Part shown: piece after piece, positions 2,383 to 49,894 of the stretch
Layout: each line of letters starts with the position of its first letter
Position numbering within the stretch: the stretch's first letter is position 1
Source: a virus
Lineage: Duplodnaviria > Caudoviricetes
IMG/VR virus record: IMGVR_UViG_3300032046_000037
Coordinates: 1 to 51,656 of that record
Length of the DNA: 51,656 bases
Direction: 5' to 3' (one strand)
Made by a program: the position numbers and the translations under genes
Notes under the pieces: model-generated
The model's database searches: none
Told to the model about the DNA's origin: nothing
The model's input: the letters and a program-made list of their open reading frames with translations, nothing else

Positions 2383-2674
2383 GCTCCTCTGCAAAGTGAA
2401 TCCCTCCGTGACTATCACACTTTTCCCTCGAAAGTCAAGAAAAGCACTACATAACAAACCACAAATTTAGTTGCATATCTACCACAAACCACATAAACCA
2501 CACAAATCGCCTAAAGCCCCCCACCCCCCCGACCCCCCAGCGAAAGTGGAGATATATGGGGGAAAGACCTCCCCCCTTTTAATTCCCCCCAGGATTCTGA
2601 GTGAAAATTCCCATAGTCTTGGTCCGAATCCGGCCCCCTCTTTTTTTTCTGCAGAGGTAGTTTCAGGACTTCCA

Positions 2675-2750
2675 CCAACTTCCTATAGGGAGTTGGGAAC
2701 TGGGAACTGGGAGTTGGGAGTTGGGAACATCCTACAGGGAACAGGAAGTT
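2675..2750. repeat. Near-perfect palindrome CCAACTTCCTATAGGGAGTTGG plus GGGAGTT/GGGAACT heptamer repeats
   Basis: Seen directly; related to 45877-46057. Confidence 0.8.
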
Positions 2751-3043
2751 TGTTGGATATTTAACTAACATATTACCCTAACCCACTACCCCTACCCCGC
2801 AAACATATAGTATTTTTTGGGGGAATAAAATTATAATTCTAATAGAAATAAGGACTTACAATAGTTTTTATCTGGTAAAGGGGCTAAAGGTAAGTTCTTT
2901 TAATTAAGTTGGATATGTATATATATAGGGGCGGGTGGGGGGGGATAGACCCAATTTTTTTTCCGGCAACTTTTTCTAAAAAATCCACTAATCCTCTTTT
3001 CTGTTAGATTTATAAATTTTTGAAAATAAATTTATTTTTTCCC

Positions 3044-3071
3044 TTGACATAGGGAGGGGGGGTGATATAAT
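3044..3071 (+). promoter_or_regulatory. Strong sigma70-type promoter
   Basis: TTGACA-16 nt-TATAAT with extended TG and AT-rich upstream tract. Confidence 0.75.
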
Positions 3072-3133
3072 ATGAGTAATGGATATTGGTATAAACCAGT
3101 CGATATTATTTGAAAATGTGAAAGGAAAAACTA

Positions 3134-3826
3134 ATGAATAAAATGAGAACACTTTTCACGCCTCTCCTGGAGCCACGGATACCTCCACGACAATGTATTC
3201 AATGCAAGATTTATTACCCTAATAAAAGAAGATATTTCCACAGACGACACTCCAGTTGGTATGAAGGATGGTGTTGTTATTGTGTGGCAGAAAAATTTGC
3301 TCCCCATCAACAGATACACTATGACCCTAATACCCCTCCTAATGAGGCCAAGGGGGAACAGAAATGCGGAGTTTGTAGCCGCAACTTTATTTATCACCCC
3401 CACAACTTCAATTTGAAGTATCATCATCCATCCGGTCTTTCTCCGTGCTGCCGCCTGTGTGAGGCACAGGAACGCCGTGAATTCTGGCGAAAAGTAACTG
3501 AAAAGTATCTCAAACGCAAGACAGATGATGAGGCCATCGCCGCCGCTTTCAAGCGGGGACAGGAAACTGGCGATATGTCCGAATGGCAATACCTCTATGC
3601 CAGACAGGAGGCCGAGGACATCAATGCAGACCTCGATGAACTCCACCGGCAACAAACTATTCGTTACGCCAGATATGAAGAAGAGTTGAAACAACTTACA
3701 GGTGGAAAGGAAGATAATGACCCAAAACCAGATGACACCGGACAGGATGAAACTAATCCTGAGCAGTTTGAAACCTGTGGAAACCGTGGAAACCAAAGAT
3801 TCGACTCCATCTCAGAAGGCATTTGA
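3134..3826 (+). CDS. Cys-rich (zinc-finger-like) hypothetical protein
   Basis: CIQC, CCYC, CGVC, CRLC pairs; AAGGA RBS; acidic tail overlaps next gene. Confidence 0.7.
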   Translation: MNKMRTLFTPLLEPRIPPRQCIQCKIYYPNKRRYFHRRHSSWYEGWCCYCVAEKFAPHQQIHYDPNTPPNEAKGEQKCGVCSRNFIYHPHNFNLKYHHPSGLSPCCRLCEAQERREFWRKVTEKYLKRKTDDEAIAAAFKRGQETGDMSEWQYLYARQEAEDINADLDELHRQQTIRYARYEEELKQLTGGKEDNDPKPDDTGQDETNPEQFETCGNRGNQRFDSISEGI

Positions 3827-5141
3827 ACTGCCCATCAACCAAATCCTATGTGGAGATTGCCGAGAGGTCGTCCAGTCGTGGCCTGCCGCCTGCATAGATA
3901 CCATCATTACGGACCCTCCTTATAATTTGGGTTTTATGGGCAAGGAATGGGATTCATCTGGTATTGCTTTCAATGTCCCATTATGGAAGGAAATGCTGCG
4001 TATTGCCAAGCCGGGTGCCATTATGCTCGTATTCGGAGGCACCCGCACCTTCCACCGCCTGACCTGTGCCATAGAGGATGCCGGTTGGGAAATCCGAGAT
4101 TGCCTGATGTGGCTTTATGGCAGTGGCATGCCAAAATCTATGAACATAAGCAAAGCCATCGACAAATCCAAGGGGGCACAACGAGAAGTAATCGGAGAGG
4201 GAAGAAGTGGAAATCCAGAAACTCACACATCGATTTATCGAATGAGTCAGCAAGGAAACAATACTTTTGGGGGTAAAATTGACATTACTATTCCCGCCTC
4301 TGACCTCGCCAAACTCTGGGACGGATGGGGCACTGCCCTTAAGCCGAGCTTTGAGCCTATATTATTATGTCAAAAACCCCTTGACGGCACCTTCGCCCAC
4401 AACGCCGAGAAATACGGCGTGGCGGGGTTAAATATAGACGCAGCGAGAATAGGAACAGGGAACCATATAGTCCACGGCAAGGAAGTGGGTAAATTTCAAC
4501 CTTGTGGTGGACAGGCTATAAAAGACTATCATGAAGTCCAAGGCCGCTGGCCCGCCAACGTAATCCTCGAATGTATCTGTGATGAGGTGATAGAGGGAAA
4601 AGAGATAGGTAGAGAAGGGGGATATAATTTTGAAAAATCCAACAATGATAATCCTTCTCATATAACTACAAACATAAAAAGTGGTATTCACTTCAAAGAT
4701 AGACAGCTCATCCACACCAATCCCGAATGTCCTTGTTATATGCTTGACCAGCAAAGCGGCACACTCAAAGGTGGAGCCAGCAGATTTTTTTATTGTGCTA
4801 AGAGTCCAAAATCAGAACGTGATGCTGGATTGGAAGATATGCCCGAACAAATCAAAGTATGGACTGGTCAATCTGATAAATCGAGTAAGGATATAAAGGA
4901 TGTGGAACAGCGATTTACGACCAAGATAAAGAACAGCCATCCCACAGTCAAGCCCCTGAAACTGATGGAATACCTCTGCAAACTAACCTCTACTCCCACC
5001 GGCGGTCTTATTCTTGACCCCTTCTGTGGTTCTGGTTCGACTTGTATAGCCGCCAAGCGTCTTGGCCGTCCATTCATAGGAATAGATAAAGAAAAAATTT
5101 ACTGCGAAATATCTTGCAAACGTCTAAATGCTGTAGTATAA
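3717..5141 (+). CDS. DNA amino-methyltransferase (N6_N4_Mtase, beta-type motif order) with large insertion
   Basis: ILCGDC, TDPPY catalytic motif, HPTVKP, LDPFCGSGST SAM-binding motif; start set at ATG 3717 by RBS. Confidence 0.92.
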   Translation: MTQNQMTPDRMKLILSSLKPVETVETKDSTPSQKAFELPINQILCGDCREVVQSWPAACIDTIITDPPYNLGFMGKEWDSSGIAFNVPLWKEMLRIAKPGAIMLVFGGTRTFHRLTCAIEDAGWEIRDCLMWLYGSGMPKSMNISKAIDKSKGAQREVIGEGRSGNPETHTSIYRMSQQGNNTFGGKIDITIPASDLAKLWDGWGTALKPSFEPILLCQKPLDGTFAHNAEKYGVAGLNIDAARIGTGNHIVHGKEVGKFQPCGGQAIKDYHEVQGRWPANVILECICDEVIEGKEIGREGGYNFEKSNNDNPSHITTNIKSGIHFKDRQLIHTNPECPCYMLDQQSGTLKGGASRFFYCAKSPKSERDAGLEDMPEQIKVWTGQSDKSSKDIKDVEQRFTTKIKNSHPTVKPLKLMEYLCKLTSTPTGGLILDPFCGSGSTCIAAKRLGRPFIGIDKEKIYCEISCKRLNAVV

Positions 5142-5142: not shown

Positions 5143-5709
5143 ATGGATAGTATGATTGAGACCCAACAAAAAAAGGTTAGTTTTGCAGAGGCCAATGGCG
5201 GCATTCCCACGGATATGATGGGTGCTGGTTTCGGTATCCATCTGTTCTCATTCGGGACTATGCGGGAATTGAAGTATCTCTGCCAGGCATTTGGAATAAG
5301 CCGCCAGTCGGCCATTCATTTGTGTAAGGCACTCCGTGTCCCTCTATTCTATATAGGCAAAGCCATTCTATTCCAACAATTTGCTCTGGAGCGAGTCCTC
5401 TACATTCTTACCCGTGCTGGCGGAACAGGGTTTGCTGCTCCGGGGTCTAAGTTCAAGGCAAGAGGCAGGAGTGGCGTGCCGTTTGATGTAACAGATTCAC
5501 ACCTCAAGATGCTGAATGACCCATTGATACTTGCAGAAATGTTCTTTGGTAGTGGCAGACGTGAGAAAGCCGCCAAGGCCCTGGCAGATGTTATCAAGAA
5601 GCTGGGACTTCCCCGGAATCGCCACAAAAAAAAGATTGACACAAGAGGGGAGAATGTGGATAATGAGAATATCGAGAATAAACATAGATATGACGAGGTT
5701 GCAGGATGA
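5143..5709 (+). CDS. Hypothetical protein, possible HTH DNA-binding
   Basis: LKYLCQAFGISRQSAIHLCK resembles a helix-turn-helix. Confidence 0.6.
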   Translation: MDSMIETQQKKVSFAEANGGIPTDMMGAGFGIHLFSFGTMRELKYLCQAFGISRQSAIHLCKALRVPLFYIGKAILFQQFALERVLYILTRAGGTGFAAPGSKFKARGRSGVPFDVTDSHLKMLNDPLILAEMFFGSGRREKAAKALADVIKKLGLPRNRHKKKIDTRGENVDNENIENKHRYDEVAG

Positions 5710-6948: not shown

Positions 6949-8778
6949 TTGACAACTTGGTTCCCGTTACCTGAAAACTACGGCGATATGACCCCCGCCG
7001 ACCAGAGGACTGCACGACTTGCAATCCTTATGGCTCAATCTACGCCTGAGAAACTCGTGCGGGCGTGGGAATTTTTCCGTAACATCTACCTTAAACCGAT
7101 TGGCAAAGGCTTCTACAGAACAGGATTTGTTCCATCTCCGCCCTTTCACTTTACAATGATAGAAGATTTAGGACGCTATGCTCGTAATGCTGAGGCTGCA
7201 CCACGTGGGTCAGCCAAGTCAACAGTGATAGGATGCGAAGTCATCTTACTTTTGCTGTTGACCCGGCCTTACTTTTCTATCGTTCTTGGTATGGCCACTG
7301 ATTCTCTAATTGAGGCACGTTTCGATACCGTAATGGACCAACTTACTACAAATCCTTTAATTATTGAGGATTTCGGGAATCAAAAACCAAATAGAGGAGA
7401 TGCCATTTGGAACCACCATCACATTCACCTAAATAATGGTTCTACTTTGCAGGGTTTTAGTGTTATGGGTAGAAAACGGGGTGCACGTGCCCATTTGTTC
7501 ATCCTCGATGACCCCGAATCAGACCCTGATTCCGAATCACAGGAATCACAGCAGCTTGTCCTTGAAAAATTTGAACGTATCCTGTTTCGACAGATTATCC
7601 CGATGTTGGAACATGGGTCTGCCATATTCTGGATTGGCACTCTTATCAATCGAAGGTCTTTCCTCTATCATGCTACCTGTTCTGACGACCCTCGTTTTAC
7701 CTTCTGGAACCGCCGTGTATTCTCGGCCATCGACTATAATCAGATAGACCCCACCCATGTTTCTATCTTATGGCCGGATAAAATGTCTCGTGAATTCCTT
7801 GAGGCCAGACGTGCAGAGATAGGGGACTCCGCCTTTGCCGCCGAATATATGAATGACCCAACCAGCGAGACCGCCAGACTCTTTACCGTTGACCCACGAC
7901 TCAACGAATATACTGTCCTCGATTACAACTACGATGAACCTCCGACAAAGAACCCTTTTGCATCCTCTGCAGAAGTAATTTGGTATCTCAAAGACGGGGC
8001 AAACTTCAAAGAGTGCAAAAAACTATTTAAGGATTGGATTGCCCCAATGTATCGGATTGCTACTTTCGATTTTGCAAGTGGACTGGGGCAGCACGCTGAT
8101 TACTCCTGTCTCGCCATTATGGGATTTGATACTTTTAATATCCTATGGCTTCTCGATATGTGGCTCGGACGTGCACGAGATGCACAATTACTCTCTACTA
8201 TTTACCAGATGACGGAAAAATGGAAAGTGAGGATTATAGGGGTAGAGTCATCGAGTATTCAAATTCAGTTTGCAGAGGCAGTTGATGAATTTGTGGGAAC
8301 ACGGTCTGCATCCTCTCTAGGTGGTTGGAGACCACGGGTTATGCCGGTGAAGTATCCGCCCAATATGTCGAAAGGAAGCAGGATAGCAGGGCTTGAGTGG
8401 CGGTTTGTAGCAGGTAAGATAAAGTATCCTGCCCATCTTGCAGGCAGGTGGCCATTCAGCCAATTATATATGCAGACCCACGATTTTACCAAGGATTTGG
8501 CGCTCTTGCCGAAGGATGATGCAGTAGATACAGTGGCTATGTCGCAATATGTAGTCCACACAAAAGGAACAAAGTCGGCACTTGGAGAGAAGAAGAAAGG
8601 AACCCTTGTGGACCGTATAATGCTCGGCGAGCAGGTCACAGGATTGCCTTTTCTTTCCAGTGCCGACTTACACTCTTTGACTCCAGAGGAAATGGCCGCT
8701 CTTGAGGACAAGGCATATAGGACAAGTAAGGTAAATAGGACACGGTTTGACATAAGAAGGCCGCAAGTAATAGGTTGA
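6949..8778 (+). CDS. terL: Terminase large subunit
   Basis: Walker A APRGSAKST, Walker B LFILDDPE, IGT coupling motif, RNase H-like DFASG..DYS..DDAVD. Confidence 0.93.
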   Translation: MTTWFPLPENYGDMTPADQRTARLAILMAQSTPEKLVRAWEFFRNIYLKPIGKGFYRTGFVPSPPFHFTMIEDLGRYARNAEAAPRGSAKSTVIGCEVILLLLLTRPYFSIVLGMATDSLIEARFDTVMDQLTTNPLIIEDFGNQKPNRGDAIWNHHHIHLNNGSTLQGFSVMGRKRGARAHLFILDDPESDPDSESQESQQLVLEKFERILFRQIIPMLEHGSAIFWIGTLINRRSFLYHATCSDDPRFTFWNRRVFSAIDYNQIDPTHVSILWPDKMSREFLEARRAEIGDSAFAAEYMNDPTSETARLFTVDPRLNEYTVLDYNYDEPPTKNPFASSAEVIWYLKDGANFKECKKLFKDWIAPMYRIATFDFASGLGQHADYSCLAIMGFDTFNILWLLDMWLGRARDAQLLSTIYQMTEKWKVRIIGVESSSIQIQFAEAVDEFVGTRSASSLGGWRPRVMPVKYPPNMSKGSRIAGLEWRFVAGKIKYPAHLAGRWPFSQLYMQTHDFTKDLALLPKDDAVDTVAMSQYVVHTKGTKSALGEKKKGTLVDRIMLGEQVTGLPFLSSADLHSLTPEEMAALEDKAYRTSKVNRTRFDIRRPQVIG

Positions 8779-11512: not shown

Positions 11513-12445
11513 ATGACAATGGACAAAACACCGGAAGAATTGAAAATAGAGGCAGATGCCAAGGTTGCTACTGATGCAAAAGCCACTGCAGATGCCAAGG
11601 CCAGGGCGGACCTCATCAACATCAAGATAGACGGGGAAGAGAGAGGAGTCAGCCTTGATGAATTGAAGAAAATGGCAGAGAAGTCGGGTGGGGCTGATGA
11701 GCGATTCAGGAAAGCATCAGAGAAGGAAAAGGCAGCCGTAAGGGGTTTGCGAATTGAGACCCTTTTCAAATCACTATCGGAGGTCGAAGAGATTGATGAG
11801 GATAGTGCCAAGGAACTTGCAGGTCTCTTAGGAATTGACCTCACCGAATTCCTGACCACTCTCAAGGAACTGAGTGGGGGGGATGAGGAAGAGGCTCCCG
11901 GCAAGAAAGGCAAGGTAAAGGGTTCTGCAGAGGTCAAAAAGATAGGTTTTGATGACCTTTCGCCGGAACTCCGTCTCGCTGCCGAAGCCGCCCAGAAGGG
12001 GGAATTTGATAAGACGGTTGATTTGGTGAAGAAAAATTGCAAGGAGGCTCTTGACAAGGATGAGATTTTGGGTAAAATGATTATGGAGATGGCAGACACC
12101 GATGATAAGAATAGTGAAAAGGTGTCTGACATCAAGGATACGCTCACTGAAATGGTGTTCGAGGATGTTCAAAGGAGGATTTTGGCACGTGAGCAATATG
12201 GACCTGAACTAATTGAAAGTTCGTTGCAAAGAGCAAGGGCACGATTCAAGAAGTTCGGCAATCCATCTAAGACGTCCAAGGAACTGCCTGTATTGGGGCT
12301 TGGGCCGTCAGGTTCGTTGCCTGCTGAAGTCTATGCCAAAGAACCAGTTAAGCGGATTGCCTCCACCGAAGCTGGTTATGAGGACAATGCTGCTGCCCGT
12401 GTATTGCAATCTATGATTCAATCGGCAAGAAGTAGCGGCAAATAA
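11513..12445 (+). CDS. Capsid scaffolding protein
   Basis: Acidic and helical, KIDGEERGVSLDEL motif, directly upstream of the capsid gene; AAGGAG RBS. Confidence 0.8.
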   Translation: MTMDKTPEELKIEADAKVATDAKATADAKARADLINIKIDGEERGVSLDELKKMAEKSGGADERFRKASEKEKAAVRGLRIETLFKSLSEVEEIDEDSAKELAGLLGIDLTEFLTTLKELSGGDEEEAPGKKGKVKGSAEVKKIGFDDLSPELRLAAEAAQKGEFDKTVDLVKKNCKEALDKDEILGKMIMEMADTDDKNSEKVSDIKDTLTEMVFEDVQRRILAREQYGPELIESSLQRARARFKKFGNPSKTSKELPVLGLGPSGSLPAEVYAKEPVKRIASTEAGYEDNAAARVLQSMIQSARSSGK

Positions 12446-12549: not shown

Positions 12550-14112
12550 ATGACAGTTACAAATACTTTGACTGCATTGGACAACTTCATTCGTGAAGAG
12601 TTGCCAAGGGTCATAAATGAGTCACTGCCTCAAATAGCCCCTATTTTCTCCGATATAGAATCCAGTTCTATAGATGTAGTTCGTAATGAAGGCATAGGTC
12701 GTGGATGGAAGGTCATCCACTTGTTCTCAACTGGTGTAGCCGGACTGATTGAATATGCGAATCCTGCCGGGCCTGCAATGCTCGGAGGCTCATCTTCGGA
12801 TAATCTTTCTGTCCTCAATCCAGTTGGAACCGACTTTGCTCCATTCCCCACTGCGTCCGAATCGCCGCATACCGGCAATATCAAAAGGGAACTGACCCTC
12901 CACAAAATGGTAGGCAATTTCAGTATCCCCATTGAGTGGATGCAATTGGATGCCTTGTCAGCCACGCAGATTAAGCAAGTGGCGAGAGATATTAAGGCTG
13001 TTGGAGAACTGAGGGCCATTACTGAGGCCGCAAGTTTATTTGGATATGCCGTTGCTAATGCCGGCGGCTATATGGTCGATGTGCTGGGTCGTATCTCGGC
13101 GATTGCCGAAAAAGGAAGCACCGACTATATCAATATAACACTGAATGAGACCTATGGACGTATCCACAACTTCCGTCCCGGAATGAGGATTGATGTTGTG
13201 GCGGATAGTTCCGGTGTCATTCAGACAGGAACAGACCCAGATGGAACCGATGTTCGCAACTATACACATACTACTAATGTATATGTATGGTTAATTGTTG
13301 ATAGCGTTGATTATCTGAACAAGATAATTACACTTCGACCCATCCATTCGGTTCTTGGCACTACACCTAATTATGGTTCAGGTTCATCGGGTGATGTGTT
13401 TGCCGTAGCGGCTGCTGCCAACGACTGGTTGGTTGTATCAAGATGCAGCAGATATACTGCCGGGACACGGCCTCTGCACAGTTGGGGATTTGAGGATTGG
13501 CTTAAAGGGTCTGGACTTATTATGGGTGGGGCCGCCCTCGCCGGGGGTCTTGACCTTGATACTTTCCCACAATTCAAATCACAAGTTGTTGCAGTCAACG
13601 GGCCGCTTACCGATACAGTAATGAATACCTACTTGGGCGGGTATCTCGACTCCTATCCGGGAGTATCGCTTGATACTATAATAACGACCACTGGTGTTAC
13701 CCAGAAGTATATCGAGCAGGCTTCCCTCTACAACAACAGGATGATTTACGACAGGACAGGAAAAGCCTTGAGCATAGCTGGTGGATGGCAGACTGTCGGA
13801 TATAGTTTCAATGGCCGTGAACTCAAGTGGATAGTCAATCCTATGGGGCTGAAGAATCGCCTCTATGCACTCAAACTCGCCGGTGGAAATATAAAAAGAT
13901 ATGTTCCCCCCAAGATTGGTGGAGCAGATGCTCGTATCGGCAATGAGATTGAGTTCGTTGGGCCTCTGACCGGGCATAGTGGAATCTTCTTGGAGAGCCG
14001 TGCCAGCACAGGTGCTGTGCAGGACATCATCGAGGCTCCATTCTGGCAATACAAGCTGATTGCTCCCATTGACGTAAGAGGGTGTAAATTTACCGATGTG
14101 ACGGAAGCATAA
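12550..14112 (+). CDS. Major capsid protein
   Basis: 520 aa after scaffold, AAGGAG RBS; position-based, HK97-like fold inferred. Confidence 0.75.
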   Translation: MTVTNTLTALDNFIREELPRVINESLPQIAPIFSDIESSSIDVVRNEGIGRGWKVIHLFSTGVAGLIEYANPAGPAMLGGSSSDNLSVLNPVGTDFAPFPTASESPHTGNIKRELTLHKMVGNFSIPIEWMQLDALSATQIKQVARDIKAVGELRAITEAASLFGYAVANAGGYMVDVLGRISAIAEKGSTDYINITLNETYGRIHNFRPGMRIDVVADSSGVIQTGTDPDGTDVRNYTHTTNVYVWLIVDSVDYLNKIITLRPIHSVLGTTPNYGSGSSGDVFAVAAAANDWLVVSRCSRYTAGTRPLHSWGFEDWLKGSGLIMGGAALAGGLDLDTFPQFKSQVVAVNGPLTDTVMNTYLGGYLDSYPGVSLDTIITTTGVTQKYIEQASLYNNRMIYDRTGKALSIAGGWQTVGYSFNGRELKWIVNPMGLKNRLYALKLAGGNIKRYVPPKIGGADARIGNEIEFVGPLTGHSGIFLESRASTGAVQDIIEAPFWQYKLIAPIDVRGCKFTDVTEA

Positions 14113-37653: not shown

Positions 37654-37679
37654 ATACATATAAGAAGCCTCTGCAGAAT

Positions 37680-38291: not shown

Positions 38292-38483
38292 ATGGGTAAA
38301 GAACTTGACGCATTTATTAAGGTGTTGGAGGTTTATGCCAATACAGATGTTCAAATAACCCAGGATTTTTACCAGGGTTTATGTGGAAGAGCAAAAGATT
38401 ATCTTATTGGTCAACAGCACTTCATTGAGGAATTGAAATCTACCATAAGCCTTTATCAGAAGGGGGAAAAGAAAGATGATTGA
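38292..38483 (+). CDS. Hypothetical protein
   Basis: 63-aa ORF with RBS. Confidence 0.6.
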   Translation: MGKELDAFIKVLEVYANTDVQITQDFYQGLCGRAKDYLIGQQHFIEELKSTISLYQKGEKKDD

Positions 38484-40904: not shown

Positions 40905-41353
40905 TGAGTGATTTGAGTTTTGAAAAGATATTGGCTGAACATAATAAAGCCTATGCAGAGGCAGAAGTGTTTAGCAGTTGGATGCCGCCCGAAGGGGAAT
41001 ATATCGTGGTAGTGAGCAACACCAAGCGGGGGACGACAATAGATGACGCTGGCAATGAACAACCGTGGTGGAGGATTACAGGCAAAATACAGGAACCCGC
41101 CAATCCCGACCTCGACCAAGCGGAATTTGCAGTGGGATTCTATCGCTCTTCGGCGTATGGTATTCTCAAGGGAGCAGCCGCCGTGCTGGCGGGTAAGCCG
41201 GTAGTAGCAAACCTGCGGGAAGCAGATGAGATAGTGATGGGAAGCAAAGGAAAGGTGCTGAAAGTAAGAGTAGAGATGGTTGAGTCAAAGAAATATACAG
41301 GACCACGTTGCTCTATTCTGCAAGTTATAGAAGTGCAGGAAGTTACTGCATAA
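40904..41353 (+). CDS. Single-stranded DNA-binding protein (DUF669-like)
   Basis: PPEGEYIVVV OB-fold-type start; follows Sak4-like gene. Confidence 0.65.
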   Translation: MSDLSFEKILAEHNKAYAEAEVFSSWMPPEGEYIVVVSNTKRGTTIDDAGNEQPWWRITGKIQEPANPDLDQAEFAVGFYRSSAYGILKGAAAVLAGKPVVANLREADEIVMGSKGKVLKVRVEMVESKKYTGPRCSILQVIEVQEVTA

Positions 41354-41583: not shown

Positions 41584-41992
41584 GTCCCACATTCAGGGGG
41601 GAAAACTAACTGGCCATTACATACACGCTGGCAGGATGTTTCCTCTGGGACTTCCTGTTATAGATAAGGAACAGTTTGTCGGCGTGCACCGATGGTTGGT
41701 CATTACCATTGGCAGGCCACAAGAAATAGATGACCTTTTCAAGTTGACTGCAGACTTGCCGCAAACTCCTGCCAGTGATAGGATTATATGGATTGGAAAG
41801 GTCAAGTTGTATTTTACCAAACAGGGTATCACCGCTTATCTCCCTCTGCAGATATGGAACCCCGGTGATATAAAGTTTCAAGAAAAGATTATTACTTCCG
41901 GGTTCGCAGAGACCATTTACAATCATAGGAATTGTCCATATACTTTGGTTCACGTTCCGCTATTGACCCACTCTCTGATGGGAAGAATATGA
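41543..41992 (+). CDS. Hypothetical protein
   Basis: 149-aa ORF, ATGA-coupled to the ATPase. Confidence 0.6.
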   Translation: MKSSEIVRFPITIRSHIQGGKLTGHYIHAGRMFPLGLPVIDKEQFVGVHRWLVITIGRPQEIDDLFKLTADLPQTPASDRIIWIGKVKLYFTKQGITAYLPLQIWNPGDIKFQEKIITSGFAETIYNHRNCPYTLVHVPLLTHSLMGRI

Positions 41993-43191
41993 CAATAACA
42001 GAATCACCGTTGGCAACTATCAAGAGACTGTGCCAAGAGATATTGAAGTTCAACGAAGATGATAAGGTGGTAGTGGATGTATATACCAGCGTCCTTACGG
42101 CTGCTTATCATTCCAACATACCGGAGTTCGTGTGGATGTATATAGTTGGACCACCAGGATGTGGCAAGACAGAGTTGGTGTGCCTGATGATACATCACGA
42201 AGGATGTGAGTTTATAGATGACCTGACAGAACACGCCTTGACCAGTGGGTATTCGGATGAGACAGGATTTGACCCATCATTGCTGAACAAGTTGAACGGC
42301 AAAGTGCTAGTGATAAAGGACTTGGGGGACTTCGCAGAGAACAATCCACGGTTGGTCGATAAGATATGGGGGGAACTGCGAGCGATATTCGACAAGTATT
42401 ATGTGAAGGCATCTGGAGTTGTGGGGACACGGGAATATAATGTAAGGTTCGGGATAGTAGCGGCAGCAACGGAATACATAGATAAGTTCAGTGAGAGGCA
42501 TAGACAACTGGGAGAGAGGTTCCTTTCGTTCAGGCTGGCAAGGACACCACTAACTTTGGGGGAAAGGCGGGAGTTCAACAAGCGGTGTGTCGCCTTGATG
42601 AATGACAAAGACAGTTGGCAACAGAAGTTGCGGGGAGCAGTGCAAAAGGAAGTGGACAGGATAATGGAAAGGTGCAGGAGGAAAGATAGGTTGCCAGAGA
42701 TTTCTGCAGAGGCATTGGAGGTGTTGTTGGGATTGGCAGACTTGTTGTGTTTATTCAGGACGATTCCGATAGAAGGAACAGCAATGCAGCCGGAGTTTGC
42801 GAGCAGGGTGGTTCAGCAGTTGGTAGGGTTAGTGCAAGCCCACGCATTTGCAGATGATAGAGACCTGATAGATGAATCAGATTTGGCCTTGGCAAGGAGA
42901 GTGGTAATAGATTCACTGTCCGTAGTGAGAAGGAGGATGATACACTGGATGTATTTGAGAGGGGCACATAGACTAGGAGTGTCGAAGGAACAGATTGCTT
43001 CTACTTGCGGAACCACTCCTATTATAGTATGGCCGATACTTGTTCAGTATCTACACAGCAAGGTAATAGAACTAACTTCGGTAAGTGAGAAGGAGGAGGC
43101 GATAGAATTATACAGACTGACACCGGAGATATATAAGATAGTAAAAGATTGTGGTTTGTTGGAAGGAACTCACATGACAGGTTTAACTTAA
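41989..43191 (+). CDS. AAA+ ATPase, MCM-like putative replicative helicase with possible C-terminal winged helix
   Basis: GPPGCGKT, LTSG, VLVIKD Walker B, AAAT sensor, ERFL Arg finger. Confidence 0.75.
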   Translation: MTITESPLATIKRLCQEILKFNEDDKVVVDVYTSVLTAAYHSNIPEFVWMYIVGPPGCGKTELVCLMIHHEGCEFIDDLTEHALTSGYSDETGFDPSLLNKLNGKVLVIKDLGDFAENNPRLVDKIWGELRAIFDKYYVKASGVVGTREYNVRFGIVAAATEYIDKFSERHRQLGERFLSFRLARTPLTLGERREFNKRCVALMNDKDSWQQKLRGAVQKEVDRIMERCRRKDRLPEISAEALEVLLGLADLLCLFRTIPIEGTAMQPEFASRVVQQLVGLVQAHAFADDRDLIDESDLALARRVVIDSLSVVRRRMIHWMYLRGAHRLGVSKEQIASTCGTTPIIVWPILVQYLHSKVIELTSVSEKEEAIELYRLTPEIYKIVKDCGLLEGTHMTGLT

Positions 43192-44926: not shown

Positions 44927-44945
44927 CCTCTGCAGAAAGAAAACG

Positions 44946-45102: not shown

Positions 45103-45849
45103 ATGGAACTTGATACCATAATCCAGGGAGATTGTATTGAAGAGATGCAGGCTATGCCTGATAACTCCATAGACCTTGTGGTTACAAGTCCTCCTTATAA
45201 TGTGGGGATTGAGTATGATACCTTTAATGACAAGCGACCTTATCCTGCTTATCTTTATTGGTGCAGACAGTGGTTGGCGGAGATACTGCGGGTGCTCAAA
45301 CCAGATGGTAGGTTGTGTCTTGACCATTATTTGTCTTGTGGAACTGCAGAATATAGATTTGTTCCTCTTATGGATTTGAATGCTATTGCTCTTTCACTTG
45401 GATTCAAACATCATGGGATAGCAATATGGTGGGATATAACTTTGACAGAGAGAACTGCGTGGGGAAGCTGGTTGAGTGCAAGTGCCCCCTATATCAATTC
45501 GCCTTTTGAGGGAATACTGATATTGTTCAAAGACCATTGGAAAAAGGACAGGCCGGGGGCTACAGAGATTAGCAAAGAGGAGTTTATGGAAGCGTGCAGT
45601 GGGGTATGGAAGATTCCAACAGACAGAGAACGATTGACACCTGCTACTTTCCCGGTGGCATTGGCGGAACGGTGCATCCGGTTGCTGTCTTGGGAAGGAG
45701 ATATAGTATTCGACCCTTTTTCCGGGAGTGGGACGACTTGTATAGCGGCTAAAAAAACGGGAAGGAGATTTGTGGGGATTGAACTTAGCCCAGCTTATTG
45801 TCAGGTGGCAAGGGAAAGGATTATGGGGGTTTCTGCAGAGGTTGAATGA
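45103..45849 (+). CDS. DNA amino-methyltransferase (SPPY, probably N4-cytosine)
   Basis: IIQGDC, VTSPPY, PATFP, FDPFSGSGTT. Confidence 0.92.
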   Translation: MELDTIIQGDCIEEMQAMPDNSIDLVVTSPPYNVGIEYDTFNDKRPYPAYLYWCRQWLAEILRVLKPDGRLCLDHYLSCGTAEYRFVPLMDLNAIALSLGFKHHGIAIWWDITLTERTAWGSWLSASAPYINSPFEGILILFKDHWKKDRPGATEISKEEFMEACSGVWKIPTDRERLTPATFPVALAERCIRLLSWEGDIVFDPFSGSGTTCIAAKKTGRRFVGIELSPAYCQVARERIMGVSAEVE

Positions 45850-45876
45850 GTGAAAATTCACGCCGTTGAAATCGTC

Positions 45877-46950: not shown

Positions 46951-46971
46951 AGCAATTATAAGACATAGATA

Positions 46972-48102
46972 ATGGTAGAAAGGAAAAGAGATATGGATAT
47001 GAAGTGTAACGGTAAAGGTAAAGCAGAAAAAGAGAAGGAGGAGGAGAGAAAGCCATATACGATACAATTCTTTGGGAATGAGATAACGATTGGCACATCG
47101 AGGAGATTCCCAAGGAAGAATCTGAAGAAATGGTCTGTGAAGGAGAGGAAGGCACTACGGCTGGCATACAGGATATATCATCAATGTCTATTGAAGGGGG
47201 AAGAGGAATATAAGGAGCTATTGGCAGTGGCAGCATCCAAGTTGGTTGTAGTTCGTAAGAATCTGGCACGTGTGGAATTAGAGGGGACACCCTGCTTGGT
47301 TTGGGAGTGGGGAAGGGGAAGAGATGCACAGGACGAGAGAGGAGAGGGGATAATAACCGAAACGGCAACCTTGTTATATACCATAAAAGAGCTGTTGGAG
47401 TGTGCATGCAAGTTTCGGAGGGTGGCACGGAGGAGAGGGGGGGTAATTGCCTTTGCTACCTGTTTAGAAGGGATTGAAAAGGAGTTCGGGGTTACGTGGT
47501 CATATAGGAAGGGAATGTTAGTAGTAACCACCATAGCACCGATAGTCTTAAAAGATACAAGTATGGACTTGGCAGTGAATATGGGGAAGTTCAAGATAGA
47601 GATGCCTCTACGAACAGACTGGTGTGGCATAAGGGTGAGCCGTGTAATAGACGGGGATGCGAATGCAGATGTAAGAGGGAAGTGGAAACCTCCTAGCTAT
47701 ATACATCCGCATGTGAACACGGATGGGTATCTATGTTTAGGGGACTATGGGAAGAGTATAAGGGCAGCATGGGAGAGGTTAGATTTGGACTCCTATCTGC
47801 ATCTAGTATTAGAGATACTAAGGAATTATAATAGTGGAAGTCCCTATGTTCGATTATCAGAGTATGTGGAGGGGTGTAGCTGTATAAGGTGTGGCGGGTT
47901 CATCCTCCTTGAACATATGGGGGAGGAGAGTGTTGTATGTGAGAGATGCAAGCGAGTAATGCATAGGAGATGTGCAAACCACACGTGCATTTGTGGGACT
48001 AAGGGAATATATTGCAGAATATGTTGTTCTCTGCACCAACGAGGTGAGGATGAGGAAGGTAATGCTGTATGTGTAATCCATGGAAAACCTATTAGTGTAT
48101 AG
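46972..48102 (+). CDS. E2 ubiquitin-conjugating enzyme-like protein with C-terminal Cys/His-rich zinc-binding region
   Basis: HPHVNTDGYLCLG matches the UBC HPN-x7-C spacing; YNSGSPY; CxxC clusters at C-terminus. Confidence 0.75.
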   Translation: MVERKRDMDMKCNGKGKAEKEKEEERKPYTIQFFGNEITIGTSRRFPRKNLKKWSVKERKALRLAYRIYHQCLLKGEEEYKELLAVAASKLVVVRKNLARVELEGTPCLVWEWGRGRDAQDERGEGIITETATLLYTIKELLECACKFRRVARRRGGVIAFATCLEGIEKEFGVTWSYRKGMLVVTTIAPIVLKDTSMDLAVNMGKFKIEMPLRTDWCGIRVSRVIDGDANADVRGKWKPPSYIHPHVNTDGYLCLGDYGKSIRAAWERLDLDSYLHLVLEILRNYNSGSPYVRLSEYVEGCSCIRCGGFILLEHMGEESVVCERCKRVMHRRCANHTCICGTKGIYCRICCSLHQRGEDEEGNAVCVIHGKPISV

Positions 48103-48120
48103 AGTAAGGAGAGTGAAAAG

Positions 48121-49179
48121 ATGAGTAGAAAGCACGGGGATAAAGGGAAGCATAAAGATAAAGGATTGCGATTCTGGCAGGGTAATGGAAAGCCAGCGAT
48201 AACGAAGGTGGGGAAAGGGGGGATGGAGATGGTATTAAGAATAAGTCCAATGGCGTGGGCAAAGATACTCTGGTTCAAAGACAAGGCAGATGGATTAGAG
48301 ATAAGTGGATTTGGAGTAACGGCAGTAGATGACCCACTATATATGGAAGAATTCCACACCATAAAGCAGGAATGCACCGGCAGCAGTGTGGATATAGATG
48401 ATGAGGATATTGGCAGGTATTTTGACGAGCAAGTGAACAGGGGAAAGCAACCAAAAGACTTCGCAAGGATATGGATACATACACATCCAGATGGAGTCAC
48501 ACAGCCAAGCGGGGTAGATACAAATACACAGGAGAGCGGGTTGGGGGGTGCAAGCTGGACTATTATGATGGTAGTAGTGGGGGAAGGGGCAATAGCTAGG
48601 ATAAGGGTGATACCCTTTGGCAATTATGCAACGGAAGGAGAGATACCAGTAAGGATAGATTGGACGGAGAGACCCTTTGGTGGGTCTGACTTTGAGGGAT
48701 GGGGGCGGGAGTTTGATAAGAACATAAAGAGGAAAGCAATAGTATGGGAAGTAGGAGTAACTGATGCTCTAATTTCAAATAGATGGGGAATAGCAGGAAT
48801 AGCAGGAATAGCAACAGCAGGGGCAGTGCCAGACAACAAGGTGATAATGCCAGCAACAATGGTAAGTAATAGGGAGACCATCATTATGGGGGATTGGGCG
48901 CTAACGGCAGCGGATATTGGATGTCTGAAGAATAGAGGGTTCACACTTATGGAAATAGATATGTATGGAGATATGTTATTCGGAATGACACCGGCACAGT
49001 TGGAACGGTATGAGTGCAACTTGTATGGAGTTAGTCTGGAACAGTTACGGGACGAGAAAGTAGTAGAAAGGAAAATAGGAGATAGTTATGAAAACAGCAA
49101 GCAAGAGGAAAGTAGAGACAACGGAAGTGGAAGTGGAAGACCCCCGGTTCATACGACAGCAGGAGATAATACCCCTTAA
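48121..49179 (+). CDS. JAB/MPN+ (JAMM) metallopeptidase
   Basis: EISGFG and HTHPDGVTQPSGVD = HxH-x7-S-x2-D. Confidence 0.9.
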   Translation: MSRKHGDKGKHKDKGLRFWQGNGKPAITKVGKGGMEMVLRISPMAWAKILWFKDKADGLEISGFGVTAVDDPLYMEEFHTIKQECTGSSVDIDDEDIGRYFDEQVNRGKQPKDFARIWIHTHPDGVTQPSGVDTNTQESGLGGASWTIMMVVVGEGAIARIRVIPFGNYATEGEIPVRIDWTERPFGGSDFEGWGREFDKNIKRKAIVWEVGVTDALISNRWGIAGIAGIATAGAVPDNKVIMPATMVSNRETIIMGDWALTAADIGCLKNRGFTLMEIDMYGDMLFGMTPAQLERYECNLYGVSLEQLRDEKVVERKIGDSYENSKQEESRDNGSGSGRPPVHTTAGDNTP

Positions 49180-49894
49180 AGCCATACAGGAGTTGACAGT
49201 CTTGGTAGCGGGGGTAGGAGCAGTGGGGAGGCAGGTGGCACTGCAACTAGCGGCAATGGGTATAGGCACAGGAGGAGAGGGGGGAAGGTTGATTCTGGTT
49301 GACCCAGATGTTGTAGAGAGACATAATTGTGCCACGCAGGGATATACCCAAGGAGATGAAAATAAGAACAAATCTATAGTAACAACAGTGGATTGCCGAG
49401 GCATCCATGGAGTAGGGGAGAGAGGTATTCAGTATTATTCTTATGGAGAGGGGGTCAAGGCAGAGGATATTGACTATGGTGACGAAAAGGTGGATATAGT
49501 ATTTGTATGTGTGGATAATATGGAAGCACGGGGAAGGATATGGCGGAGGATAATTAAGACAGGGAAGGGAATCAAGCTGGTAATAGATACCAGGATGGAC
49601 TCGGAGGTAATAAGGATACTGACAGTGCCGTTGGATGATTCGGATGATATGGATGCTATGGTGGTAGTAGATAGATATGTAAGGGAGGCATTGTTTGCAG
49701 ATGAGAAAGCAACAGAGGGAAGATGCACGGCAAGGATGACTATATATTCAGCGGCTGTGAACGCAGGATTGGCTGTGGCACAGTTTGCCAAGTGGTTACG
49801 GAGAGACAAGGGAATACCTCTGCAGAAGGATATATCCTTTAATCTTCTGACTATGGAGTTATCGGATTTGTATGGTAATGGGGGGAGTAGGTAA
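49088..49894 (+). CDS. ThiF/E1-like adenylyltransferase
   Basis: RFIRQ, GVGAVG, DPDVVERHN, CVDN, DTRM, candidate catalytic Cys in GRCTAR; AGGAG RBS. Confidence 0.92.
   Translation: MKTASKRKVETTEVEVEDPRFIRQQEIIPLKAIQELTVLVAGVGAVGRQVALQLAAMGIGTGGEGGRLILVDPDVVERHNCATQGYTQGDENKNKSIVTTVDCRGIHGVGERGIQYYSYGEGVKAEDIDYGDEKVDIVFVCVDNMEARGRIWRRIIKTGKGIKLVIDTRMDSEVIRILTVPLDDSDDMDAMVVVDRYVREALFADEKATEGRCTARMTIYSAAVNAGLAVAQFAKWLRRDKGIPLQKDISFNLLTMELSDLYGNGGSR

Follow-up and report, generated by a model that had tools for sequence, protein, structure and literature searches.

Two described systems invite comparison with the one reported here, the stoperators of Cluster A phages and the Chi sites of some other phages. 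In the parts of the Cluster A reports drawn on here, stoperator motifs form a spectrum that tracks the repressor and lie in one orientation relative to transcription (PMC6550527, PMC9283540), and an autoregulatory site, rep, an unknown gene and a Cas4-family gene follow one another in that order (PMC6550527). Chi is enriched in certain phages; the portion of that study used here gives 23 sites for LLS, one per 1.86 kb, and describes Chi-rich phages with a strong bias to one orientation (20:3 and 32:0), sites clustered near one end and no Rec module (PMC12315714).

The window analysed here is the complete 51.7-kb genome of an uncultured phage, in which a short word had been noticed and compared to stoperators, HIP1 and parS. 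The stoperator analogy gained support: copies lie on or inside sigma70-like promoters, one lies in the leader of the operon with the XRE-type HTH gene, and the order of leader site, HTH gene, small ORF and Cas4-like nuclease gene is like that of the Cluster A immunity cassette as given in the same part of that source (PMC6550527). It broke down over orientation, which is balanced and alternating here. The HIP1 and parS analogies failed, as the unit is non-palindromic and its copies are unclustered. Unlike the Chi-rich phages as portrayed in PMC12315714, this phage combines balanced orientation and even spacing with a Rec module. Three features are new: the alternating orientation, inverted pairs of fixed polarity, and a conserved leader copy.

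The word and its copies

All 13 exact copies of TTCTGCAGAGG in the original prediction were found at the claimed coordinates and strands, compared to a mean of 0.02 and a maximum of 1 in 100 dinucleotide shuffles. The 10/11 copies at 34904 and 41843 (both ATCTGCAGAGG, minus strand) and all six TTTGCAGAGG variants (2386, 4973, 5182, 8269, 35779 and 50718) were also present, and allowing up to one mismatch to TTCTGCAGAGG gave 20 matches where 0.91 were expected. TCTGCAGA carried GG in all 15 copies, as had been claimed, and TCTGCAGAGG likewise numbered 15. Every listed copy was real but the count was too low: the invariant core TGCAGAGG occurs 26 times, 12 on the plus and 14 on the minus strand, and the real unit is TTY-TGCAGAGG, with T at position -2 in 23 of 26 copies, C (16) or T (8) at position -1, and G at position +1 in only one.

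Neither null model named with the original prediction removed the enrichment. The 26 copies compare with 3.0 expected under a second-order Markov model and with 8.9 ± 1.7 (largest 14) in 100 synonymous-codon shuffles, a generous null because the five intergenic copies were kept fixed. The 21 coding copies are spread over all frames (11 sense, nine of them in frame 2; 10 antisense, 4, 3 and 3 by frame), in agreement with the claim that no protein motif underlies the word, which is instead a site spread genome-wide and under selection at the level of DNA. A library artefact is unlikely because near-identical DNA is present in contigs from three other sediment metagenome runs, belonging to three other studies. 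The sites and associated features are as follows; all promoters, terminators and genes given are predicted, the genes by a crude longest-ORF criterion.

2386..2396, minus: site CTTTGCAGAGG, W orientation on top strand
2438-2411, minus: promoter-like site, ~18 nt upstream of site 2386
2647..2657, plus: exact site paired with 2386 at 264 bp, flanked by a GAGTGAAAATTC box (2599-2610) and an iteron-like run
4973..4983, minus: site GTTTGCAGAGG
5181..5191, plus: site TTTTGCAGAGG, partner of 4973 (211 bp)
7964..7974, minus: exact site in TerL (S-S-A-E codons); a site is present at the equivalent place in relatives, in one of them with flipped orientation
8268..8278, plus: site GTTTGCAGAGG in TerL (F-A-E-A), paired with 7964 at 307 bp; G005 and G009 have homologous sites
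11923..11933, plus: exact site
13471..13481, minus: site CTGTGCAGAGG
15568..15578, plus: site TCTTGCAGAGG
19829..19839, minus: exact site
21413..21423, plus: exact site
25379..25389, minus: exact site in sheath gene; G001 and G002 have homologous sites
26227..26237, minus: site TCCTGCAGAGG
26415..26425, plus: near-cognate TTCTGCAGGGG, in the widest plus-strand gap among core copies
31366..31376, minus: near-cognate TTCTGCAGGGG, in the widest minus-strand gap among core copies
32192..32202, plus: exact site
34904..34914, minus: site ATCTGCAGAGG in polymerase gene
35779..35789, minus: site GTTTGCAGAGG in polymerase gene
36359..36369, plus: exact site in polymerase gene (I-L-Q-R)
37625..37653, plus: sigma70-like promoter (TTGACA, 17 nt, TAGGAT, TG before it)
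37668..37678, minus: leader copy, exact site; sense strand reads CCTCTGCAGAA
37680..37724, plus: stable hairpin and T run, directly after the leader copy
37992..38273, plus: XRE-type HTH protein, 93 aa (P0121), candidate reader in this subgroup
38292-38483: 63-aa ORF between the HTH and PD-(D/E)XK nuclease genes
38476..39486, plus: PD-(D/E)XK (Cas4/RecB-like) nuclease, second ORF past the HTH gene
39372..39382, minus: site AATTGCAGAGG
40951..40961, plus: site CTATGCAGAGG
41843..41853, minus: site ATCTGCAGAGG
42702..42712, plus: exact site, partner of 41843 (862 bp)
44927..44937, minus: exact site, intergenic
45831..45841, plus: exact site paired with 44927 at 907 bp, adjoining the iteron cluster and followed after 6 nt by a GAGTGAAAATTC box (45848-45859)
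49817..49827, minus: exact site
50717..50727, plus: site GTTTGCAGAGG, partner of 49817 (903 bp)

Dialects among related phages

The enrichment extends to related phages. About 55 related metagenomic phage loci each have their own equally abundant word, among them TGCGGAGG, TGCTGAGG, TGCGGGGC and TGCAGGGG as well as unrelated ones such as GGTGGTCCCAGG. The pattern CTGCNGRGS occurs 22-65 times in five relatives, compared to 1-3 times for the reversed control. Among loci of at least 10 kb, a dispersed, strand-balanced 8-mer reached z of 10 or more in 27 of 36 centred on TerL and in 27 of 37 centred on the polymerase. Homologous alignment columns spell each genome's own dialect through synonymous or non-synonymous change. 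At polymerase column 36359 the codons encode LQR, LLR or LRG to suit the dialect of each relative (CTG CAG AGG in this phage, TTG CAG AGG in G004, CTG CTG AGG in G001 and G002, CTG CGG GGC in G003), while in TerL and PDDEXK columns the strand of the site is flipped among genomes. Because the amino acid at homologous codons shifts to suit each dialect, selection acts on the DNA. We read the word as this phage's version of a recognition site common to the family and kept by the phage lineage through selection on the DNA, a compact site of 10-12 bp that is asymmetric and has a single part.

The original prediction had named either methyltransferase as a reader. The word would then be the putative target of a phage DNA methyltransferase or base-modifying enzyme, its abundance a form of self-marking, and its asymmetry would confine methylation to one strand. 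This phage does carry two N6_N4 methyltransferases (3702-5141, with a ~190-aa insertion, and 45070-45849) together with DUF1599 and nucleoside-deoxyribosyltransferase-like genes. The enzymes are not conserved, however: in G003 and G007 their place is taken by a small MT-A70 enzyme (188-207 aa), and homologues of the 479-aa methyltransferase occur at 13 of 69 TerL-centred loci, all with another dialect. Modification also leaves the pair polarity, the even spacing and the leader unit unexplained, and we regard this explanation as scarcely credible.

It is also very improbable that the word belongs to the host genome, as a DNA-uptake sequence, host Chi or HIP-like repeat acquired or mimicked by the phage. 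Uptake-sequence dialects are brought to mind by the single-base dialects, the frequency of about one per kb on both strands and the copies beside terminator hairpins. A related TerL was found on one prokaryote contig, 2.8 kb long and binned in a Pirellulales MAG, but that MAG, at 2.8 Mb, contains 131 copies of CTGCNGAGG, close to the ~85 expected with uniform bases. Candidate hosts showed no enrichment: among 151 Planctomycetota genomes, a single phylum linked to the phage through that binned contig, none had CTGCGGAGG above ~0.05 per kb or above its own reversed-word control, whereas word density in the phages is 0.5-1.3 per kb. Wholly unrelated words in related phages, with layout and leader position unchanged, also argue against a host word.

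Orientation, pairing and spacing

Orientation was balanced in every genome region, with nearly all genes on one strand. In 11 genomes, neighbouring sites alternated in orientation 253 times and shared it 115 times. Inverted pairs within 60 bp had a single polarity, with 13 cases of the word followed by its reverse complement (W..rcW) and none of rcW..W (pooled p 1e-18). Members of 5'-W...rcW-3' pairs were typically 0.2-0.9 kb apart and successive pairs 1-3.5 kb apart. Of 22 strand sets, 20 had same-strand spacing more regular than chance, while the spacing of all sites together was mostly about random. G162 was concordant with even same-strand spacing; regularity was weak in the distant classes G163-G166.

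These patterns bear on the possibility that the word serves replication or recombination as a polar signal, read strand-specifically by a DNA-tracking machine. It could be a priming or initiation site, each close W..rcW pair being a small bidirectional origin, or a Chi-like site at which a helicase-nuclease is halted or converted, whether that of the host or the phage PD-(D/E)XK enzyme with the DnaB-like helicase. Strand symmetry fits a two-way process, and the alternating neighbours, the even same-strand spacing and the placing of near-cognates in both widest same-strand gaps speak for such a signal. Same-strand spacing of 1.5-6 kb is the size of Okazaki fragments. Two site pairs flank iteron-like clusters in this phage, and the leader copy heads the operon for replication and recombination. 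The genome encodes a family A polymerase, a Sak4-like protein, a P-loop or DnaB-like helicase and two nucleases, ERCC4 and PD-(D/E)XK, but none of the 53 ORFs was recognised as a primase, which we also counted in favour of the replication variant. However, a fixed phase between strands is predicted neither by a Chi model nor by pure lagging-strand priming, and priming is ill-suited to pairs 4-40 bp apart and to sites in promoter spacers. The weak regularity in G163-G166 counts against the signal as well, as does the failure to find the word in a host genome within the one, doubtful, host phylum covered. We consider it a doubtful reading, though one to be taken seriously.

The leader element and the reader

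One copy always lies downstream of the polymerase gene in a leader with the order promoter, word, hairpin and T run. An AT-rich UP-like run precedes the promoter at 37625..37653, which is predicted to drive the leader, and the 60-nt fold of the hairpin at 37680..37724 has -25.2 kcal/mol (z -5.4). The leader copy is ~14 nt past the -10 hexamer in this phage, G001, G002 and G004, and relatives keep its position and orientation, each in its own dialect. Past the leader, this phage's subgroup has the XRE-type HTH gene and then the Cas4-like nuclease gene. Elsewhere the word lies inside a 17-nt promoter spacer (G005 19950, G005 31932, L126 2349) or overlaps the -10 or start (L130 8529, L134 1875). 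Spacing is tight between word and hairpin (0-8 nt) and variable between promoter and word (~6-35 nt), which would fit an RNA-level unit better than an operator.

The reader might be a predicted small leader RNA of ~60 nt (promoter, word, hairpin, U run) whose free 5' part carries W and pairs with the complementary word where it is single-stranded, serving as a guide or ready-made primer. The arrangement of word, 0-8 nt, long stable hairpin and T run is kept past the polymerase gene in all classes examined, although the words themselves are unrelated. Among 17 leader elements (including G007, L126, L130, L132, L133, L134 and L140), 14 were cut at a T run past the hairpin and folded at -20 to -31 kcal/mol, with z of -4 or below in 13 (the 14 minus G009); the word was mostly unpaired. 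Only 6 nt separate the -10 hexamer from the word that follows it in L134, which would put the RNA start at or just before the word. For unrelated words in related phages a change of guide is simpler than retargeting a protein, and no dialect-tracking protein was found. W RNA on rcW would have 3' ends facing across the short segment of a pair, as in the observed polarity. The leader had no match in Rfam. Several points oppose this reading. A seed 5' of the hairpin would have to be trimmed before it could prime, the 53 ORFs scanned included no recognisable Cas-, TnpB- or Argonaute-like effector, double-stranded promoter-spacer sites are hard for a bare RNA to reach, and a promoter followed by a terminator is also an ordinary attenuated leader. 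We judge an RNA reader improbable.

Our preferred reading is a stoperator-like, genome-wide operator network read by a phage-encoded factor, to which we give a probability of roughly 0.4. The reader is most likely a phage-encoded sequence-specific DNA-binding factor, a protein and not an RNA, and the putatively dimeric XRE-type HTH protein of ORF 37992 is the leading candidate in this subgroup. Of the HTH candidates named originally, ORF 37992 is of XRE type with a site in its own operon leader; ORF 5143 gave no DNA-binding signal. The family was present in 9 of 9 TGC-type genomes and in G162, whose word is of another class, but was not found (E above 10) in G007, G010 and G163-G166, each of which has an abundant word, and the leader element too wherever this was looked at. 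With 6 of 16 motif-bearing genomes lacking it, the family stands as a subgroup candidate and not as the universal reader.

The model of ORF 37992 (pLDDT 91) best matched XRE/HipB/C-protein regulators, weakly by E-value (about 0.03; TM 0.55-0.66). Homodimer prediction scored 0.69 compared to 0.00 for the best of three controls, a mark reached by 20 of 30 proteins solved as one-chain pairs and 1 of 23 solved single-chain; at least 91% of contacts agreed between runs, with partner pLDDT of at least 82. Because XRE dimers are solved, this pass may echo known structures. The predicted homodimer supports putative DNA binding. Conserved residues lie in the predicted interface and the variable helix 3 is exposed, as would be expected of a recognition helix with drifting specificity. 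On the other hand, across more than 12 phages that have TGCGGAGG in common, no stretch is less conserved than the putative recognition helix, which carries indels, and the helix in the window is closer to those of TGCTGAGG phages than to that of L114, which has the window's core. No second half-site was found within 30 bp of the word, while a compact XRE dimer normally takes adjacent half-sites. The 53 ORFs scanned yielded no integrase, partition or other lysogeny gene, so that a silencing repressor would have no obvious life-cycle role.

If the operator network exists, the factor would bind the leader copy and the copies on or inside sigma70-type promoters, where it would control initiation and its own synthesis. 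Bound to intragenic copies, it may act as a direction-dependent roadblock or loop anchor. Because the copies form inverted pairs of a single polarity, a correctly oriented site would be met every few kb in either direction of travel, and the outcome of binding would presumably be silencing or insulation. If this is true, one phage-encoded factor controls the whole genome through marked binding sites.

Abundance of the word in the window and its relatives

All 13 exact copies of the 11-mer, both 10/11 copies and the six TTTGCAGAGG variants reported in the original prediction are present at their positions. The invariant core, TGCAGAGG, occurs 26 times in the window, 12 times on the plus strand and 14 on the minus strand, and the consensus is TTY-TGCAGAGG-not G. 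The excess did not vanish under null models. Dinucleotide shuffles gave an expectation of 0.02 for the 11-mer, far below the 13 observed, and a second-order Markov model predicted 3.0 copies of the 8-mer compared to 26 observed. One hundred synonymous-codon shuffles, which leave the 5 intergenic copies unchanged, yielded 8.9 ± 1.7 copies (largest 14), again compared to 26. Approximately 80% of the window copies are intragenic. Coding copies use every reading frame, with the Ser-Ala-Glu frame favoured by sense copies (9 of 11); because the core is nearly palindromic, a Ser-Ala-Glu peptide can host the word in either orientation. No second half-site, nor anything else conserved, was found within 30 bp of the word, indicating a single-part site.

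Analogies to HIP1 and to parS had been proposed, and neither survived. HIP1 of cyanobacteria is a true palindrome for which a link to methyltransferases is suspected. Like HIP1, the phage word is short, hyper-abundant and found inside genes; unlike HIP1, the unit is not a perfect palindrome, as TCTGCAGA never occurs without GG on one side (15 of 15 copies), 8 further copies are TTTGCAGAGG, which breaks the palindrome, and most of the versions carried by relatives are not palindromic. As for parS, whose palindromic copies cluster near a parAB locus, the phage sites are dispersed genome-wide and neither ParA nor ParB was found among the 53 window ORFs.

The window is a whole assembly in a single contig of 51,656 bp, from a tailed phage in which the plus strand bears nearly all genes (~87% of the window is coding on that strand).

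Genes of the window (coordinates, product)
3702-5141, N6_N4 methyltransferase 1
6949-8778, large terminase (TerL)
12550-14112, major capsid protein
23920-26547, sheath-like protein
33931-36594, family A polymerase fused to a UDG domain
36560-37189, ERCC4 nuclease
38476-39486, PD-(D/E)XK nuclease
40020-40904, Sak4-like ATPase
45070-45849, N6_N4 methyltransferase 2
46583-46873, ThiS
49088-49894, ThiF

No tRNA and no lysogeny genes were found in the window, and its 53 ORFs include no recognisable primase, integrase or partition gene. Searches of the unassigned ORFs against PDB sequences and NCBIfam were uninformative except for a P-loop in ORF 41932. Canonical TTGACA/TATAAT promoter-like sites are predicted, for example at 3044-3071, 8775-8803 and 36481-36509. 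Close relatives were absent from deposited phages: a megablast search with 12 kb gave no match, and tblastn reached at most 23% identity for TerL and 22-27%, over part of the length, for the polymerase. Near-identical DNA was present in contigs from four sediment metagenome runs of four studies, one of which is perhaps the window's own source. Among the 40 listed of ~170 differences from three other runs, none falls in a site, where only about one was expected. Contigs from two other sediment runs (X2 and X3) skip 593 bp at 33337-33931, a segment with two small ORFs just upstream of the polymerase gene, and strains also differ by 21-nt insertions near 38411-38419.

Several features of gene content were recorded alongside. 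The UDG-like domain of the polymerase is of family 4 and N-terminal (residues ~7-183), and the fusion is kept in all nine TGC-type genomes. The ThiS-like and ThiF-like pair flanks two unassigned ORFs (46583-49894); ThiF adjoins a JAB-domain protein in the related genomes G003 and G007, and in G007 also a 1206-aa protein. The region makes up a phage-borne cassette of the ubiquitin-like or sulphur-carrier kind. At 43149-43963, an ORF resembling nucleoside 2-deoxyribosyltransferase is next to a DUF1599 ORF ('nucleotide modification associated domain 1'), and the corresponding region of G003 carries a dATP/dGTP pyrophosphohydrolase (PF04447) as well as DUF1937. Such genes are a possible hint of modified nucleotides. 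The terminase gene is uninterrupted in the window, and in some relatives the protein is ~1015 aa with homing-endonuclease/intein domains (PF14528, PF14890; P0012, G004 at 2056-5103 and G008 at 46355-49408). Long one-strand tandem arrays in the relatives L105 and L104, L128 and L143, such as GATGCCGC-containing units repeated 25 times in L105, bear no relation to the dispersed word. The possibility that the CCTATAGGGAG-type repeats are T7-like promoters was set aside; the 1044-aa ORF gives no polymerase signal and lies among tail genes.

Metagenomic relatives of the window terminase number in the hundreds; they share 45-60% identity with it and lie on contigs of 50-57 kb. Our comparison set comprised 67 terminase-centred loci, 46 polymerase-centred loci and 15 whole or partial relatives. 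Related phages are enriched too, in that each has its own hyper-abundant word, or dialect, with 17-66 copies per whole or partial relative compared to 26 core copies in the window.

Dialects of the word (word, where found)
TGCGGAGG, the commonest dialect, 64 copies in G005
TGCTGAGG, G001 (52 copies) and G002 (57 copies)
TGCGGGGC, G003 (31 copies)
TGCAGGGG, G008 (33 copies)
TGCAGAGG, the window's core, also G004 and L004
GGTGGTCCCAGG, unrelated word, distant relatives G007 and G162
TGACGGGGGACGGGG, unrelated word, distant relative G163
GGAGCCCGGAGTG, unrelated word, distant relative G164
GCAGAGACAGG, unrelated word, distant relative G165
ACCGGGAGAG, unrelated word, distant relatives L132 and G166

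In five genomes, the pattern outnumbered its reversed-word control by 60:2, 65:2, 40:3, 22:1 and 65:3. A dispersed, strand-balanced 8-mer reached z of at least 10 in 27 of 36 loci centred on the terminase and in 27 of 37 centred on the polymerase (all at least 10 kb long), two sets that overlap in contigs; several loci below z 10 still bear the same kind of word at lower z.

Alignments of orthologous proteins showed 20 places, in 11 families, at which sites occupy the same column in at least two genomes, and genomes with different dialects often have sites at the same column. At one polymerase column, the codons are ATT CTG CAG AGG in the window (LQR), CTG CTG AGG in G001 and G002 (LLR), CTG CGG GGC in G003 (LRG) and TTG CAG AGG in G004 (LQR). 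Columns in the sheath and terminase proteins alternate among GCA, GCT and GCG with dialect, and between genomes the site changes strand at one column of the terminase and one of the nuclease. The site is specific to the phages, and selection acts on it at the DNA level. No protein stood out as one whose similarity tracks dialect, same-dialect genomes being slightly closer in every orthologous group.

The only prokaryote match to the phage was a 2.8-kb contig binned in a Pirellulales MAG. No excess of the word was seen in that MAG or in any of 151 genomes of Planctomycetota, the one phylum to which this 2.8-kb link leads. These counts bear equally on a Chi word, recognised by the host RecBCD or AddAB, and on an uptake sequence, either of which would be over-represented in the host chromosome. 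In competent bacteria, the DNA uptake sequences (Neisseriaceae) and uptake signal sequences (Pasteurellaceae) are words of the chromosome that a pilus protein reads. The phage words are likewise 10-12 bp long and found about once per kb, in coding DNA and on either strand, with lineage-specific single-base dialects and copies often at terminators. Unlike uptake sequences, the word belongs to phage lineages and shows no enrichment in the only candidate host phylum sampled; to our knowledge, neither alternation nor fixed pair polarity has been described for uptake sequences.

Orientation, spacing and pair polarity

The sites have a strict paired layout. Opposite orientations outnumbered same orientations between neighbours by 21:4 in the window and by 253:115 over 11 genomes, and alternation reached significance in 7 of these genomes (label permutation, p < 0.05). 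Same-strand spacing was more regular than chance: in 20 of 22 strand sets its coefficient of variation (CV) was lower than the null mean (p ≤ 0.05 in 14). All-site spacing was mostly near random. Same-strand regularity was extreme in G007 and G162 (CV 0.17-0.35); the distant G163-G166 showed little regularity of alternation or spacing. The window's two largest same-strand gaps between core copies each contain one copy of TTCTGCAGGGG, and the pattern TGCAG[AG]GG gives 33 window sites with same-strand CVs of 0.50 and 0.52.

With W defined as the word read on the sense strand of the leader (the promoter-word-hairpin-T-run element downstream of the polymerase gene) and rcW as its reverse complement, the polarity of a W..rcW pair is independent of the strand read. 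Neighbours arranged 5'-W...rcW-3' are close and rcW...W neighbours are far apart, the window medians being 903 and 2516 bp, respectively. The W..rcW interval was shorter in 12 of 15 genomes (p < 0.05 in 9; the exceptions are G009, G007 and G165). Pooled normalised medians were 0.41 for W..rcW and 1.28 for rcW..W (Mann-Whitney p 1.2e-18), with the sites partly homologous between genomes and the genomes hence not independent samples. Neighbours within 60 bp comprised 13 W..rcW, 0 rcW..W and 8 same-orientation pairs, and those within 300 bp comprised 48, 17 and 31, respectively. Because pair polarity is fixed, the spacing statistics are explained. Avoidance of direct repeats as the sole cause of alternation was rejected by argument only: between 11-bp repeats at distances of several kb, deletion would be too infrequent to produce the near-regular spacing of G007 and G162.

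Strand symmetry and even same-strand spacing, in a phage with no primase recognised among its 53 ORFs, are what a replication or recombination signal might show, and we regard this reading of the word as possible but doubtful. No large-scale switch of orientation of an origin/terminus kind was present, as orientation was balanced in every 5-kb bin of nine genomes; a test for Chi-like orientation bias had this same outcome. As described in PMC12315714, the Chi-enriched lambdoid phages LLS and MD8 carry the known word of their host in orientation ratios of 20:3 and 32:0, clustered near one end, and have no Rec module. The resemblance to these phages is that the 8-mer is the most frequent octamer of the genome, at ~1 per 2 kb and far above chance, with polar action, and is kept by selection in the phage (PMC12315714). 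The window family departs from these Chi-rich phages (PMC12315714) in its balanced orientation, its distribution (even spacing and fixed pair phase), the Rec module that it carries and its words, which vary between related phages; this speaks against a Chi-like signal.

The leader and other promoter-linked copies

One copy is conserved in every word class: a sense-strand copy of constant orientation just downstream of the polymerase and ERCC4 genes. The order of this leader is the word, 0-8 nt, a long stable hairpin, a T run, and then a ribosome-binding site and start codon.

Leader of the window (coordinates, element)
37625-37653, promoter (predicted)
37668-37678, leader word CCTCTGCAGAA
37680-37716, hairpin
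ending at 37724, T run

When 17 leader elements were folded, a T run followed the hairpin in 14, at -20 to -31 kcal/mol, and shuffle z was -4 or lower in 13. These parts, with a GC-rich hairpin and, in some elements only, a promoter, are those of a small RNA or attenuated leader that ends in an intrinsic terminator. In the window, G001, G002 and G004 alike, a near-consensus promoter stands ~13 nt upstream of the word, with an AT-rich run ahead of it, and in L134 the -10 hexamer ends 6 nt before the leader word; the leader promoter was not placed in genomes other than these five. The window's leader copy lies between the predicted promoter and the HTH gene at 37992, an arrangement kept in 8 of the 9 TGC-type genomes. 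Rfam gave no match at gathering scores, and no RNA run was among those containing the phage.

Other intergenic copies are also associated with promoter-like sequence. The word lies inside the 17-nt spacer of promoter-like sites at 19950 and 31932 of G005 and at 2349 of L126, and overlaps the -10 hexamer at 8529 of L130. A copy lies a few nt upstream of a conserved GAGTGAAAATTC box in the window (word at 45831, box at 45848-45859), G001, G002, G003, G008 and G011; at window copy 2647 the box (2599-2610) is instead ~36 nt upstream of the copy. Two non-coding window regions, 2597-2745 and 45831-46060, have in common a GAGTGAAAATTC box, one 11-mer, CAACTTCCTATAGG and iteron-like units, and each is followed by near-consensus sigma70-like promoters. 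In relatives, the GAGTGAAAATTC box adjoins their own dialect. A 17-mer of the GTTCCCTGTAGGGAGTT class is present in six clustered direct copies at 45892-46055, intergenic after the second methyltransferase gene, and in one inverted copy near 2726 (2726-2742) within a run of GGGAGTTGGGAAC-like units, giving 7 matches where 0.07 were expected. This array resembles iterons and could thus act as an origin or in regulation.

The close link between word and hairpin, together with the unrelated words of related phages, is compatible with an RNA that reads the word, a reading that we consider improbable. Leaders of related design include the lambda late-promoter leader RNA (Q antitermination) and the immunity RNA of phage P4 (P4 CI RNA), which are promoter-proximal and end in a terminator; in P4, a short leader-derived RNA acts via short complementary words, and systems of the lambda/P4 type have one to three target sites. 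The phage leader shares with these a strong promoter followed within tens of nt by a recognition element and an intrinsic terminator. It differs in having dozens of sites on both strands, and no Q-like or P4-like gene was recognised. In the most specific version, which is slightly less probable still, the leader would yield an RNA of ~60 nt whose free 5' end is the word's complement, and this RNA, not a protein, would set the dialect and prime DNA synthesis. It would anneal to the word wherever that strand is single-stranded, and the conserved ERCC4-type nuclease would remove the 3' hairpin flap, leaving a ready-made primer. A phage without a recognisable primase could thereby start synthesis every few kb on either strand, with each close W..rcW pair serving as a miniature bidirectional origin.

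Candidate readers and a proposed operator network

HTH proteins, ORF 5143 and both methyltransferases had been suggested as readers of the word. ORF 5143 gave no DNA-binding signal. The methyltransferases are not conserved wherever the word is kept: they are N6_N4 enzymes in the window and MT-A70 enzymes in G003 and G007, with patchy homologues elsewhere. The HTH suggestion stood in part. ORF 37992 is a candidate in the window's subgroup, its family being present in all nine TGC-type genomes and in G162, but the family was not found (E above 10) in G007, G010 and G163-G166, or 6 of the 16 genomes. Two G007 ORFs downstream of its leader were rejected as HTH relatives when hhalign showed no relation; the G007 replication module is present, on the other strand.

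The window order after the leader is a small ORF (37787-38170), ORF 37992-38273, a 63-aa ORF and the PD-(D/E)XK nuclease. The first two overlap by 179 nt in different frames. The ribosome-binding site of ORF 37787-38170 is good, and its N-terminal 'PVIFIPD' part is conserved, recurring in G003, G004 and G005; frameshifting or gene nesting may underlie the pair. ORF 37992 was placed in neither a Pfam nor a PHROG family, and Pfam HTH matches were weak (each in 2-3 of 20 members). The model of ORF 37992 (pLDDT 91) consists of one long N-terminal helix and three short helices, and the best fold matches were XRE/HipB/C-protein regulators, albeit weak ones (E ~0.03, TM 0.55-0.66). A homodimer was predicted with a score of 0.69 compared to 0.00 for the best control. 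Of proteins with solved structures, 20 of 30 homo-pairs and 1 of 23 single chains attain this mark. Agreement of contacts between runs was at least 91%, with pLDDT of at least 82. This pass may reflect likeness to solved XRE dimers. Conserved residues of the family lie in the predicted dimer interface, and helix 3, which should be the recognition helix, is the variable part. Its variability cuts both ways, as specificity drift is possible, yet indels occur among phages that share TGCGGAGG. The window's helix 3 resembles that of TGCTGAGG phages.

We favour, tentatively and at a probability of about 40%, an operator network resembling stoperators, with a phage factor as its reader; ORF 37992 is the candidate for this factor in the subgroup. 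In such a network the factor would bind the sites and block RNA polymerase. We base this on the overlap of copies with promoters, on inverted pairs that are close and of a single polarity, on the autoregulation-like leader, and on synteny and a motif spectrum shared with Cluster A phages as described in PMC6550527 and PMC9283540. In that description, the stoperators of L5 and Bxb1 lie mostly in short intergenic gaps in a single orientation relative to transcription, and the L5 repressor (gp71) is a 183-aa two-domain monomer with an HTH and a stoperator domain (PMC6550527, PMC9283540). Cluster A phages, as described there, likewise carry dozens of asymmetric words of at most ~13 bp genome-wide, at promoters and within transcribed regions, with similar but non-identical words in related phages, one copy upstream of the regulator gene, and the gene order regulator, a gene without an assigned role and a Cas4-family gene (PMC6550527, PMC9283540).

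The stoperator analogy of the original prediction holds for the many copies and for the copy at a predicted promoter upstream of an HTH gene, but fails for orientation (12:14) and for homology of the candidate regulator to L5 gp71. Unlike in Cluster A, ~80% of the copies are intragenic, orientation is balanced and alternating, and inverted pairs have a fixed polarity. The candidate, of the XRE type, has 93 aa and is predicted to dimerise, no sequence relation to the L5 repressor was detected, its family is absent from 6 of 16 genomes, and no lysogeny genes were found. Because the single orientation fails and there is no universal reader, we set the system apart from the stoperator family. A full-text literature search returned no prior description of this layout, with only the papers on Chi-rich phages and stoperators being relevant.

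A whole lineage of uncultured sediment phages (50-57 kb) recasts its protein-coding genes so as to retain 20-65 copies of a word of 10-12 bp, and related phages have exchanged the word for single-base variants or wholly different words with the layout unchanged. The word is a practical sequence-only marker with which to recognise and sub-type this phage group in metagenomes. If a regulator reads it, this would be a second, independent and differently wired case of genome-wide silencing in phages, and the dialects would provide a natural series of matched protein/site specificity pairs. If the word is instead a replication or recombination signal, or is read by an RNA, it would suggest a so far undescribed way of priming or protecting phage DNA.
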